The notes: a model not told the origin generated them from the letters alone. Positions 1,163 to 6,704 are shown, numbered from the stretch's first letter. The stretch is DNA of 25,837 bases from Candidatus Methanomethylophilaceae archaeon (GCA_050944155.1 JBMNQN010000014.1:1-25837); one strand, 5' to 3'. Made by a program: numbers and translations.

Positions 1163-2242
1163 CGGGGGAAGGACCGGCTGGTCTCCGAAGTTCTTTGCGA
1201 ACCCGTATCCCTTGTACGCAAGTATTACGAGCGAAACGATTCCCGCCGCCATGAGAACGAGCAGCATCAGGCCTCCGAACAGCGGATATCCGGCCCAGTA
1301 GAAGACCGAAGCGTAATCGTTGATCAGGTGCAGCATTATGGCCGCATGGAGTCCGAATTTTACGTAAAGATATCCGCAGCCCAGCCCGAAAATTGCCGCG
1401 GGAATCACTTTGATATACCCCCATCCTTCCATATGTGCGAATCCGAAAACCAGGGCGGAAATAATCATCAGAACCATCGAAACCTTGCTCATTCCGAATC
1501 CGCCCCATAGATTGAGCCAGGAATCTTTTTTTCCGTTTACGGCGGCGATTATCGCCATGGGAACGCCTATGATGAGCATCCTGGAAACGATCTCTTCCCA
1601 TACTCCCGCGCTGGCGAGAACGAACATCTGAAGCCTCACGTCGATATCGTCCGTCGGCGGGGTATCCATGACATCTCCGGTGAGAAAAGAAATGAGATAA
1701 ACCATAATCAGATGCAGCAGAATCAGCCCCGGCCACATGACGGCGACCCAGAACGGGCTGGTCTTTGTTATCTTTTCCTCGTCTTTCAGAGATTTCAGAC
1801 TTCCCGTATGAGTTATCAGTTCCTTAACGGAAATGGAAAAACTCATGATTATCATGAACACCAGAAATACCCAGTAAAGCTGGGTTCCGGCACCCGAGAA
1901 TACTAAAAACGCGTAGGGGTACGGTACGAGAATGAACAGTGCGTAGGATATCGATCCGACGAAATCCAGAACGTCGAAGAATCCGACGGCTATTATCAGT
2001 ATGTCCGCTATCGCATAGATGCTTACGAACAGGAACAGAAGAAACGACAGTTTGAACATAAGGCCGCTTTTCTTGGGAGGTTCGTACGGAACGTACAGAC
2101 GTCTGCCGCAGTTTCCGCAGAATGCCGCTCCGTTGCGACGATAACCGTCGCACTCCGGACAGTCGAGCATGTTTCCGCATGCCCCGCAGAACGAGGCTCC
2201 TTCTTCTCTGTATTTCCGGCATTCGGGACAGTTGTCATCCAT
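1142..2242 (-). CDS. CPBP (CAAX/Abi) family intramembrane glutamic endopeptidase with N-terminal double zinc ribbon
   Basis: EEIVSR, FGFAH and HLIND catalytic motifs; many hydrophobic TM segments; two CPEC-x9-FCGxCG repeats at the N-terminus. Confidence 0.85.
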   Translation of the reverse strand: MDDNCPECRKYREEGASFCGACGNMLDCPECDGYRRNGAAFCGNCGRRLYVPYEPPKKSGLMFKLSFLLFLFVSIYAIADILIIAVGFFDVLDFVGSISYALFILVPYPYAFLVFSGAGTQLYWVFLVFMIIMSFSISVKELITHTGSLKSLKDEEKITKTSPFWVAVMWPGLILLHLIMVYLISFLTGDVMDTPPTDDIDVRLQMFVLASAGVWEEIVSRMLIIGVPMAIIAAVNGKKDSWLNLWGGFGMSKVSMVLMIISALVFGFAHMEGWGYIKVIPAAIFGLGCGYLYVKFGLHAAIMLHLINDYASVFYWAGYPLFGGLMLLVLMAAGIVSLVILAYKGYGFAKNFGDQPVLPPSVEKDG

Positions 2243-2849
2243 GGGAATTCTCCAGCAGTTTTATCAGATTCTCCGTGCGTTCGGAGTCTATAACGGCCAG
2301 GGTACGGCCGCCTTTTCCGCAGATTTCCCTGAGTCTGAGGAACATGTGTCTTTCCCTGATCAGGGCCATCTCTCTGAAACCCTTCGAACTGTTGACGAAG
2401 ATGTCCCATTCTTTCATAAAATTTTCCGGAGAAGACATGTCGAATTTCTTCTTCATAGCCTTTTTGGCGAGTCTGTGCTCCTTCACGAACTCCCACGGGC
2501 TGACGGTTTCGCAGTAAATTTCCGTGTAGATAGCGTCGTTCATGTCCAGGGCGTTGATTTCCGCGGAATGTTCGTCGCACAGATCTACGGCAACGCACCA
2601 CGCGGGAGCCGGAACTTCCACCGTACCGAAATCCGAGAGTCTGTGCGCTAGGACGATTTCCAGTTCTCCCGGCTCGTACTCTTCGGCGGTCTCTCTGTGT
2701 CTGACCCCTTCGATTTCTTCGGGACTCAGCGACACGCAGTATCTGTCGTAATTTCCGAATGCGTTTCTTACGGCGTCTCCTCCGGCGGAAAGCCCTCTGA
2801 CCACGGGCAGAATATCAAGAATTCCGTCCCCCAGTCTAAGGGTTATCAT
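2235..2849 (-). CDS. Hypothetical protein (204 aa), possibly distantly TraB-like
   Basis: Globular-looking ORF overlapping both neighbours (ATGA 2846-2849; 8-nt overlap with CPBP gene); function not established. Confidence 0.7.
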   Translation of the reverse strand: MITLRLGDGILDILPVVRGLSAGGDAVRNAFGNYDRYCVSLSPEEIEGVRHRETAEEYEPGELEIVLAHRLSDFGTVEVPAPAWCVAVDLCDEHSAEINALDMNDAIYTEIYCETVSPWEFVKEHRLAKKAMKKKFDMSSPENFMKEWDIFVNSSKGFREMALIRERHMFLRLREICGKGGRTLAVIDSERTENLIKLLENSHG

Positions 2850-3793
2850 CTCTTTGTGCTCCTGGAAAGCACAAGGTCCGTCAGGGTTCCGCTTTCGTCC
2901 ATCTTTTTCAGTTCTTTGTTGGAAACCACGGCGGTTTTGTTGATGTTTTCCCTGGCGGGTTCACTGTCCACAATAACTACGGAAAGACGTCCCACCAAAT
3001 CGGATATTTCGGAAGCGATGAGAGCTCTCTGCATCAGTTTTTCGTCGTTGGACCCCGCTCCCGTCAGAATGAGAACGTCGTCCACTCTGGACAGGGCGTC
3101 GAAAGGACTTTTCGCCAAAGGAGTGATGCTGAATCCGATTTCCATAAGTTTGTTCATAACTTCGGAACCGGTGCGGACGTCTCCGCTGAGTTCGTGTTTT
3201 CCGACCGAAGACCCGGTTCTGTATCCGAAGGGATTCAGGGGCATTATTATGGGCATGTCGAAGAACTCCTCGATGCGCAGGGCCGCGTCGATCATGGCCC
3301 CCATTCCGGATTCGTACATCTGAATGGTTCTTCTCGAAACTCCGGCGGTTTCCGCCAGAACCCCCAGACTTATTCCGGATCTTTCCCTTATTTCTCTGAG
3401 AAGTTCTCCGTCAAGTTTCACGTAAAGGCCGCCGGGAGCGGCGTATATGGCCGGTGCCTCCTCCTCCAATATGTAGGACATCAGGGTCTCGTTGGAAATT
3501 ATCGGGACGTCGAACCTGGAATATATTATGCCTTCTTCCAAAGCTCCGGAACTGGACCTTTCGCCGATCAGAAGTGCACTGGCACTCAGCGCGTCGGAAA
3601 GAATTTTCATCTCTTCGGCGTTCTCTTTGGAAAAAGCGTCGATGTTGCTGAGAACCTTGATTATCAGAAGATTATCGTCTTTTCTGGCAACTATGTCGAA
3701 ACATATGCTGCGCAGGTTCAGCGGAGAAGATACTACGTAACCGGCCCTGGCAAGCAGGTCTCTTGTTGTGGCGATAAGGTCTTCTCTGCCCAT
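2846..3793 (-). CDS. Archaeal HTH-type transcriptional regulator (COG1395-like; nuclease-like folds flanking an XRE HTH)
   Basis: CFDIVAR..LLIIKVLSNID; YAAPGGLYVKLDG; HTH 'GISLGVLAETAGVSRRTIQMYESG'; KSPFDA. Confidence 0.85.
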   Translation of the reverse strand: MGREDLIATTRDLLARAGYVVSSPLNLRSICFDIVARKDDNLLIIKVLSNIDAFSKENAEEMKILSDALSASALLIGERSSSGALEEGIIYSRFDVPIISNETLMSYILEEEAPAIYAAPGGLYVKLDGELLREIRERSGISLGVLAETAGVSRRTIQMYESGMGAMIDAALRIEEFFDMPIIMPLNPFGYRTGSSVGKHELSGDVRTGSEVMNKLMEIGFSITPLAKSPFDALSRVDDVLILTGAGSNDEKLMQRALIASEISDLVGRLSVVIVDSEPARENINKTAVVSNKELKKMDESGTLTDLVLSRSTKR

Positions 3794-3805
3794 GGTCTTA
3801 ATAGT

Positions 3806-3824
3806 GTTTGTTCTTCTATATAAA
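3806..3824 (-). promoter_or_regulatory. TATA box plus downstream element TTTATATAGAAGAACAAAC (copy 1), promoter of the HTH operon
   Basis: TTTATATA ends about 24 nt before ATG 3793 (leaderless spacing); identical to 6686-6704. Confidence 0.75.
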
Positions 3825-6581: not shown

Positions 6582-6603
6582 GATTGTCACCTCTTGAATT
6601 TGA

Positions 6604-6674
6604 AGTCCGAGACCGTCCGGTAGACGTGAGTATGTTAAACATAGGTCCGTCCGGACCGTCTTCCGCTTGGGACT
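6604..6674 (-). promoter_or_regulatory. Structured 5' leader (long imperfect hairpin) of cdc48-hsp20
   Basis: Arms 6611-6620/6651-6660 complementary at 9/10; inner TATGT/ACATA 6631-6635/6639-6643; outer AGTCC/GGACT 6604-6608/6670-6674. Confidence 0.55.
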
Positions 6675-6685
6675 ACTACTAATTA

Positions 6686-6704
6686 GTTTGTTCTTCTATA
6701 TAAA
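6686..6704 (-). promoter_or_regulatory. TATA box plus downstream element TTTATATAGAAGAACAAAC (copy 2), promoter of cdc48-hsp20
   Basis: Identical 19-mer to 3806-3824; implies a TSS near 6673 and a leader of about 90 nt. Confidence 0.75.

Follow-up and report, generated by a model that had tools for sequence, protein, structure and literature searches.

A putative operator joined to the TATA box of proteostasis gene promoters in Candidatus Methanomethylophilaceae, with the COG1395 protein as its candidate reader

The cdc48-hsp20 locus and its composite promoter element

We analyzed a window of 25,837 nucleotides (nt) from Candidatus Methanomethylophilaceae archaeon (GCA_050944155.1, JBMNQN010000014.1:1-25837), which is contig C14 of a source genome (G000 in our numbering) of 1.04 Mb in 27 contigs that is 92% complete. 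On one strand of this window, a gene pair for a Cdc48/VAT-type AAA+ ATPase and a small heat-shock protein (cdc48-hsp20) is followed by an operon that starts with a helix-turn-helix (HTH) gene of the COG1395 family, and the promoters of both carry the same 19-bp element, TTTATATAGAAGAACAAAC (Table 1). An initial annotation of this DNA had reported the two identical copies and had read them as the mark of a candidate proteostasis or heat-shock regulon, with either the HTH protein or some other factor acting at both. Our search of the window confirmed both copies as exact, and none of 100 dinucleotide-preserving shuffles contained a match (0/100). The sole further match in the window, at 16665-16683 on the minus strand, was rejected as a site, as it has 3 mismatches, scores <12 bits with the position weight matrix (PWM) described below, and has no gene downstream on that strand. 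The sequence flanking the two copies differs on each side, with the identity stopping at the 19-mer, and hence the copies are not part of a longer duplication.

The 19-mer is a composite core-promoter element, in which a consensus TATA box is joined to an 11-bp putative operator, GAAGAACAAAC, with the general form GAA[G/C]nnC[A/T]AAC. This box occupies about -23 to -13, downstream of the TATA box and upstream of the start site expected from TATA spacing. One copy lies 105 nt upstream of the cdc48 ATG (6581), and the same spacing places the probable cdc48 start near 6673-6674, with a 5' untranslated region of ~93 nt. The other copy ends 12 nt upstream of the HTH-gene ATG (3793), and since the first T of its TATA box is 31 nt away from this ATG, in keeping with the usual archaeal spacing, we infer a leaderless HTH mRNA and consider this copy a candidate autoregulatory operator. 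RNA evidence consisted of assembled metatranscriptome contigs only, in which stretches without cover carry no meaning: RNA-library contigs from two studies break off at 3778 and 3773, the spacer is covered by a DNA-like run, and one contig spans the junction between the HTH gene and the following gene for a 204-aa protein. These contigs are a weak hint that the HTH gene may have a start of its own and may be co-transcribed with the 204-aa gene.

Table 1. Predicted promoters and genes associated with the two copies of the element in the window
Feature	Position	Strand	Evidence
cdc48-hsp20 promoter	6686..6704	-	TATA box TTTATATA at 6697-6704, box GAAGAACAAAC at 6686-6696; exact match; PWM 36.9 bits
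COG1395-HTH operon promoter	3806..3824	-	same TATA box and box; exact match; PWM 37.7 bits
cdc48/VAT-type AAA+ ATPase, 728 aa	4395..6581	-	Pfam CDC48_N 1.2e-24, CDC48_2 1.9e-14, AAA 5.4e-101 (two stretches)
Hsp20 small heat-shock protein	3913..4398	-	Pfam HSP20 3e-7; NCBIfam archaeal Hsp20 1.1e-38
COG1395/NF003162 protein, 315 aa	2846..3793	-	Pfam HTH_3 E 1.5e-8; NCBIfam NF003162
204-aa protein, no family	2235..2849	-	no Pfam or NCBIfam match; model pLDDT (predicted local distance difference test) 96
366-aa zinc-ribbon membrane protein	1142..2242	-	Pfam DZR 2.5e-6; N-terminal double zinc ribbon

Distribution of the element from the source genome to other phyla

Scanning the source genome with the 19-mer at up to 3 mismatches gave six matches vs 0 for the reversed pattern used as control. 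Beyond the window, a third exact copy on another contig precedes a thermosome gene, while TTAATATAGAAGAACAAAA and TTTATATAAAAGAACATAC, with 2 mismatches each, precede a second thermosome gene and LonB, respectively (Pfam Cpn60_TCP1 at 3.9e-169 and 7.1e-168 for the two thermosomes; the LonB domains were likewise found by Pfam). The initial annotation was right that other promoters lack the full GAAGAACAAAC: across the 42 TTWATATA boxes of the genome, GAAGAACAAA follows four, and the variant AAAGAACATAC follows one, that of LonB. We derived a PWM from 83 distinct sites in genomes other than G000, and it returned just 5 matches above the threshold of 12 bits over both strands (2 x 1.04 Mb). All of these scored 27.5-39.1 bits, and they precede the two thermosome genes, cdc48-hsp20, LonB and the COG1395 operon. 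Frequent occurrence of the motif upstream of housekeeping genes was not observed. Hence, the element very probably marks a proteostasis (heat-shock-type) regulon, much as first proposed, whose members would be thermosome A, thermosome B, cdc48-hsp20, LonB and the operon encoding the COG1395-HTH, 204-aa and zinc-ribbon membrane proteins.

Two side observations may be noted here. In the thermosome A leader of G000 (L001:1520-1570), a short hairpin or palindrome stands right before the Shine-Dalgarno sequence, reading TCCAC-gtga-GTGGA in G000, ATTTCAC..GTGAAAT in G021 and GCTAGC-N3-5-GCTAG in families f2-f4; with pairing kept while the sequence shifts, it could be a 5' RNA stem of the mRNA or a second operator. 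Furthermore, TTAATATAGAAGCAAATTGG at G000:C11:5397-5404 (minus strand), which shares TATAGAAG with the box and scores <12 bits with the PWM, precedes the gene for a 600-aa protein rich in cysteine motifs.

Within the order Methanomassiliicoccales, the box was matched in 41/41 genomes (7 families, 18 genera), with 144 matches vs 21 for the reversed control. We examined 116 of the 144, namely all matches of G000, G001, G002, G009, G012, G013, G014 and G016-G040, the best match only for G004, G005, G006, G008 and G015, and none from G003, G007, G010 and G011, and assigned the downstream genes by BLASTP to G000 proteins or, for new classes, by Pfam. The motif is conserved in relatives: 100 of the 116 sites precede proteostasis genes, COG1395 genes or genes for a homologue of the heat-shock repressor Phr, specifically thermosome A-type (40 sites), thermosome B-type (19), COG1395 (13), HtpG/Hsp90 (8), cdc48 (7), hsp20 (5), LonB (4) and the Phr homologue, a winged-helix protein of 204 aa (4). 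The other 16 are 3-mismatch matches plus one with 2 mismatches, before unrelated genes or none. In the site logos, TATAGAAG, C7, A9 and C11 of the box are invariant, and neither the logos nor the 100 sites read contain a second half-site. The cdc48 promoters of six other genomes of the genus read GAAG[G/C/T/A]ACAAAC, while COG1395 orthologues in families f1, f2, f4 and f5 carry a motif-like box that ends 11-14 nt ahead of the start codon, a spacing compatible with leaderless transcripts, and those in f3 keep TATAGAAG. HtpG, which was not found in G000 by tblastn, bears the box as GAAGTTCAAAC in other genomes of the genus (L097, L107, L112, L116 and others); in G002 the open reading frame (ORF) behind this box has just 257 aa (L104) and may be broken.

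At class level, where 201 genomes were covered (with the unpublished G133 included in tallies only), the 15-mer TATAGAAGNNCNAAC occurs exactly in 98. Sixty sites were taken, 3 of which were cut by contig ends, and 35 of the 57 examined precede thermosome, hsp20 or cdc48 genes in families f10, f13, f14, f15, f16, f20, f23, f24, f26, f28, f30 and f31, with the consensus TTTATATAGAAGnnC[T/A]AACATA. The remaining 22 lack TATA context or a gene, and matches in f21, f19, f25 and parts of f24 and f26, which are without TATA context or inside genes, were set aside as noise. The COG1395 gene itself is present in 195/201 class genomes and follows cdc48-(hsp20), with the gene for the 204-aa protein of no family (hyp204) behind it, in 28 of 30 loci. 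The idea of a palindromic box was also considered, as the f10-type TATAGAAG-NN-CTAACATA matches its own reverse complement at 5/8 positions per half; it was dropped because the Methanomassiliicoccales and Methanomicrobiales forms of the box are not self-complementary. In three f9 loci (L182, L183, L184), no ORF lies behind the box, and a conserved stretch found there instead, GGGCT...AGAGTCaCGGGATGC, may encode a small RNA expressed from this kind of promoter.

Further afield, we scanned a wider collection with a degenerate HTH pattern that is biased to proteins with G-V-S-R-R-x-I-x-x-Y-E-x-G-M, which matched at least 119 stretches, 80 of which (~700 kb) were examined. A thermosome gene lies directly 3' of COG1395 on the same strand in 33 of these 80 loci, labelled Methanoregula, Methanolinea, Methanoculleus, Methanospirillum, Methanocorpusculum and other Methanomicrobiales, with one Archaeoglobi and one Bathyarchaeia, and within 4.3 kb in 5 more; cdc48 lies upstream of COG1395 in 19/80, mostly labelled Methanomassiliicoccales and Thermoplasmata. 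The box form of Methanomicrobiales is TATAGAACCACAAAC and stands before the thermosome gene that directly follows COG1395, where the short spacer reads TTTATATAGAACCACAAACC and differs from the G000 15-mer at positions 8 and 9 only. With TATAGAA[GC]..C[AT]A[AC]C as a strict pattern, 33 matches were obtained in the ~700 kb vs 2 for the reversed control, and 32 of the 33 are at most 260 nt upstream of thermosome (25), hsp20 (3), COG1395 (3) or cdc48 (1) genes. In two loci of metagenome-assembled genomes (MAGs) labelled Halobacteriales, TAGAAGCGCTAAAC and TAGAAGCATAAAC precede the COG1395 gene. Taken together, these sites are evidence that the putative operator is older than the phylum.

The box is kept independently of Phr. 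The Phr homologue of the relatives (PDB 2p4w, E 1.3e-14, residues 3-175), whose best NCBIfam model is Phr_regulator, below cut-off, occurs in 23/41 order genomes, in 0/16 genomes of the source genus, six of them 98-99% complete, and was not found in G021 (1 contig, 99% complete). In G000 itself, tblastn with the Phr homologues of four relatives gave a best E of 0.12 and the NCBIfam Phr model at best 14.7 bits; G000 being 92% complete, a Phr gene could lie in the missing part. The box nevertheless persists in the genus genomes and in G021, where no Phr homologue was found, which makes Phr a very improbable reader of the box in the genus. The same holds in the families f10, f15, f28, f9 and f30, where the exact box was found in 21/22, 7/7, 5/6, 4/5 and 3/3 genomes, respectively, and the Phr homologue in none, while f24 has the exact box in 4/19 and the Phr homologue in 19/19, and f21 the exact box in 8/24, with an equally high control, and the Phr homologue in 24/24. 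Phr was seemingly lost both in the genus and in G021, which would leave the box promoter directly before cdc48. As an aside on gene order, the arrangement Phr-(hsp20)-cdc48-hsp20-COG1395-hyp204 is present in G025, G036 and G040 and at L233, L243, L251, L256, L273, L278, L281, L284, L295, L298 and L309, and echoes the HSR1-AAA-hsp20 operon of Archaeoglobus fulgidus.

The COG1395 protein as candidate reader of the box

The window protein is a full-length member of the COG1395/PAB2104/NF003162 family, matching the NCBIfam 'transcriptional regulator' model NF003162 over residues 1-314 of 315 (E 1.7e-94, 316.4 bits vs a cut-off of 263), with HTH_3 at 35 bits vs a cut-off of 23. Its AlphaFold model (pLDDT 94, predicted template modelling score 0.90) has three domains. 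The alpha/beta domain at the N terminus is followed by a hairpin and by a five-helix HTH of XRE type at about residues 129-178, and a disordered linker (~185-210) leads to a second alpha/beta domain at the C terminus. In Foldseek searches, the HTH resembles HipB, SinR, C.BclI and P22 c2 (probabilities 0.98-1.0, all E >1e-3) and the N-domain resembles archaeal Hjc resolvases (probability 0.98-0.99, but E 5e-3 to 3e-2), while the C-domain gave no separate match. The HTH and Hjc-like matches are in line with the PD-(D/E)XK-HTH-PD-(D/E)XK layout predicted for the family in section 15 of PMC1189080, which also predicts a nuclease. Over 70 representatives, D33, K46, N50, R93, the linker PGG and the helix residues G151-V-S-R154 ... 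Y160-E161 are among the near-invariant positions.

The HTH helix and the box vary together. A GVSRRTIQMYE helix pairs with a GAAG box in 26/26 loci with a detected box, and a GVSRRTISKYE helix with a GAAC box in 28/28; 54 loci had no box within the stretch examined and thus stand outside this count. The Archaeoglobi locus has KK with GAAC, and the two Halobacteriales-labelled loci have QM with TAGAAGC... before the COG1395 gene. Helix residues 158-159 thus change together with box position 8. In the 434-repressor family these two positions face the bases, which makes the covariation a lead.

On this basis, we consider that the box is most likely bound by the COG1395 protein as an autoregulated repressor, a reading that we hold with slightly better than even confidence. 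It is suggested by the gene neighbourhood in two phyla, by the box on the promoter of the gene itself and by the helix-box covariation. The COG1395 protein would bind immediately behind the TATA box, at about -23 to -13, and would thereby hinder recruitment of transcription factor B (TFB) and RNA polymerase, by analogy with Phr, MDR1 and LrpA. Chaperone and protease genes, together with the COG1395 gene, would be kept repressed until stress, when heat or unfolded protein may release the COG1395 protein, with COG1395 itself, titration by chaperones, or the coupled 204-aa and membrane proteins as candidate sensors. A wider version, which we regard as a tentative proposal somewhat short of even, is that COG1395 is the ancestral regulator of archaeal chaperone genes. 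Its operator TATAGAA[G/C]nnC[A/T]AAC, fused to the TATA box, would have persisted before thermosome genes in lineages ranging from Thermoplasmatota to Methanomicrobiales and one Archaeoglobi MAG. The preference for G or C at position 8 would be set by residues 158-159 (QM vs S/K-K), and Phr/HSR1 would form a second layer that was gained or lost by lineage.

Several observations weigh against COG1395 as the reader. The covariation spans very few independent lineages, and one locus (L263) scored as RK with G, counter to it; likewise, the counts above come from related genomes and are non-independent. Nor can presence or absence of the gene discriminate, because COG1395 occurs in nearly all the class genomes and is listed in PMC1852104 as universal in and specific to all Archaea, with its role unknown; f16, f14 and f24, with few exact motif matches, also have it. 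The 15-mer at 1 mismatch did not rise above the reversed control in five genomes of other phyla, and the six such matches with TATA context in those genomes all precede thermosome genes. The box is asymmetric and without a clear palindrome, whereas an XRE-type HTH usually binds dyads as a dimer. In Methanomicrobiales, no box was seen upstream of the COG1395 gene itself, and in the order the copies on COG1395 promoters are the most degenerate of all target classes. Finally, D33 and K46 are near-invariant in an N-domain that is PD-(D/E)XK-like with Hjc-like fold matches, and therefore COG1395 could act as a nuclease that simply shares the regulation of the other genes, in line with the nuclease predicted for the family in PMC1189080. 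The last four of these points favor an alternative that is serious, although we find it rather unlikely, in which the box is the operator of a different factor and COG1395 is a mere member of the regulon, for example as a stress-induced nuclease or DNA-processing protein, with its neighbourhood reflecting co-regulation. However, no other candidate for such a factor emerged, Phr was not found here, conservation of the HTH recognition helix is similar to that of the box, with residues 158-159 covarying with position 8, and COG1395 adjoins a box-bearing promoter in two arrangements in two phyla. Because of this genomic context, and because Phr is all but ruled out for the genus, we favor COG1395 over another factor.

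The other readings appear weaker. It is very improbable that the box is the site of a heat-shock repressor of the Phr/HSR1 family, as in Pyrococcus and Archaeoglobus, even though the targets hsp20 and AAA+ ATPase are the same, relatives with the order Phr-cdc48-hsp20-COG1395 have Phr homologues that bear the box, and the variant GAAGnnCTAAC includes the HSR1 half-site CTAAC as quoted in PMC9133787. Such a repressor was found neither in G000, the 15 other genus genomes and G021 nor in the five families in which the box is near-universal, and the box has no second half-site (AC-N5-GT) and lies upstream of the start, not over it. Improbable, too, but less so, is that no dedicated factor exists and the box is a core-promoter element, resembling a downstream TFB-recognition element (BRE) or setting promoter strength, that is read by TFB, the TATA-binding protein (TBP) or RNA polymerase and gives high or temperature-dependent initiation. 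Thermosome genes are generally highly expressed, which counts for this explanation, and the box always stands in fixed register with the TATA box. In Haloferax/Halobacterium, moreover, the BRE/TATA of Phsp5 is described as sufficient for heat induction via TFB variants (PMC2396416). That haloarchaeal model invokes multiple TFB and TBP paralogues, whereas the search of G000 found a single gene each for TFB and TBP, and hence a paralogue switch is unlikely there. In addition, no G000 promoter beyond the five PWM sites bears the box, and the box is also on the promoters of regulator genes (COG1395, and the Phr homologues in G016, G020, G023 and G028). That the two window copies arose by chance or by a recent local duplication without function, for which only the short length of the repeat speaks, has a negligible probability in view of the shuffles, the third exact copy on another contig and the orthologous promoters across the order and beyond.

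The element is a new and deeply conserved putative operator of archaeal chaperone genes, and its assignment to COG1395 is the best-supported reading, as yet unproven. In outline, the proposed arrangement would be analogous to bacterial HrcA-CIRCE, HspR-HAIR and CtsR, in which a short operator acts on few chaperone or protease promoters and the regulator gene lies inside the regulon, often beside a chaperone operon, although here the promoter is of the archaeal TATA/TFB type and the putative operator is asymmetric. With Phr (Pyrococcus furiosus) and HSR1 (Archaeoglobus fulgidus) of arCOG01684, the system has in common that hsp20, the gene for the Cdc48/VAT AAA+ ATPase and that of the regulator itself (here COG1395 as the candidate) are targets, and that the putative operator lies downstream of the TATA box, which by analogy would imply repression by blocked polymerase recruitment. 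It differs in that no Phr-family gene was found in genome or genus, that the regulon centers on thermosome genes and adds LonB and HtpG, and that the candidate is an XRE-type HTH flanked by nuclease-like domains, whereas Phr and HSR1 combine a winged helix with a coiled coil. The sites differ as well: the box abuts the TATA box at about -23 to -13, without a dyad and not over the start, unlike the Phr site TTTA/TGGTAA/AAAA over the start and the HSR1 site CTAAC-N5-GTTAG, as quoted in PMC9133787. By description, there is also a likeness to the heat-responsive thermosome and small heat-shock protein promoters Haloferax volcanii cct1 and Halobacterium Phsp5, where sequence directly next to the TATA box is needed for basal and induced transcription (PMC2396416).

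The box bears on the control of the thermosome, the main chaperonin of most archaea. Phr and HSR1 are the only known archaeal heat-shock transcription regulators according to a 2022 review (PMC9133787) and to PMC5852551, and the same two alone are named in PMC10746257 (2023), with none known in Crenarchaeota. A literature search, with most subscription journals outside its reach, found no study of COG1395 function, of this box, or of a link between COG1395 and chaperone promoters. The present analysis yields a sharply defined putative operator, a small probable regulon that is complete for a genome of 1 Mb, and a regulator candidate from a universal archaeal family. If the candidate is correct, this would provide a function for an archaeal signature protein and a way into the control of proteostasis in methanogens of guts and digesters.

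Genes behind the two copies and minor observations

The Hsp20 protein scores 132 bits with the NCBIfam archaeal Hsp20 model, vs a cut-off of 140. Its gene is open from GTG 4398, overlapping the cdc48 stop, but the likely start is ATG 4386 behind GGAGG, and a GC-rich hairpin lies 3' of hsp20, ahead of the next promoter. In the operon that follows, the HTH gene is translationally coupled to the 204-aa gene by a 4-nt ATGA overlap, as the initial annotation had it for a hypothetical gene, and the 366-aa gene comes third, with an 8-nt overlap. The naming of this third gene as a CPBP protease has weak support: the C-terminal part of its product faintly resembles a CPBP intramembrane protease, with an NCBIfam ABC_perm_CPBP match (21 bits, E 9.8e-5) far below cut-off and no Pfam CPBP match. 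The 366-aa gene is kept after the 204-aa gene in family f1. The 204-aa gene stands directly 3' of COG1395 in 30/30 of the class-level loci and also in many loci of the degenerate scan; as a partner, it follows COG1395 throughout Thermoplasmatota but not in Methanomicrobiales. Its model shows weak fold likeness to ChaN, EreC (erythromycin esterase) and BcR135 (probability 0.18-0.33), which form a TIKI/TraB-like group, and to a Tetrahymena complex IV subunit (probability 0.99-1.0, E 3e-3).

Two further observations were made upstream of these genes. The cdc48 leader (6581-6674, minus strand; ~93 nt) has a strong predicted hairpin of -27.7 kcal/mol, with -26 to -28 in G001 and G009, and GTCCGAGCGGAAG is conserved near its start across the genus. 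At ~6762-6800 on the plus strand, ahead of the divergent PALP gene (6832-8151, plus strand), a TTATATAA box is followed by TGTACA-N14-TGTACA with an inner ATGTATACAT palindrome, which resembles an operator through which an unrelated factor would regulate this pyridoxal-phosphate enzyme gene.

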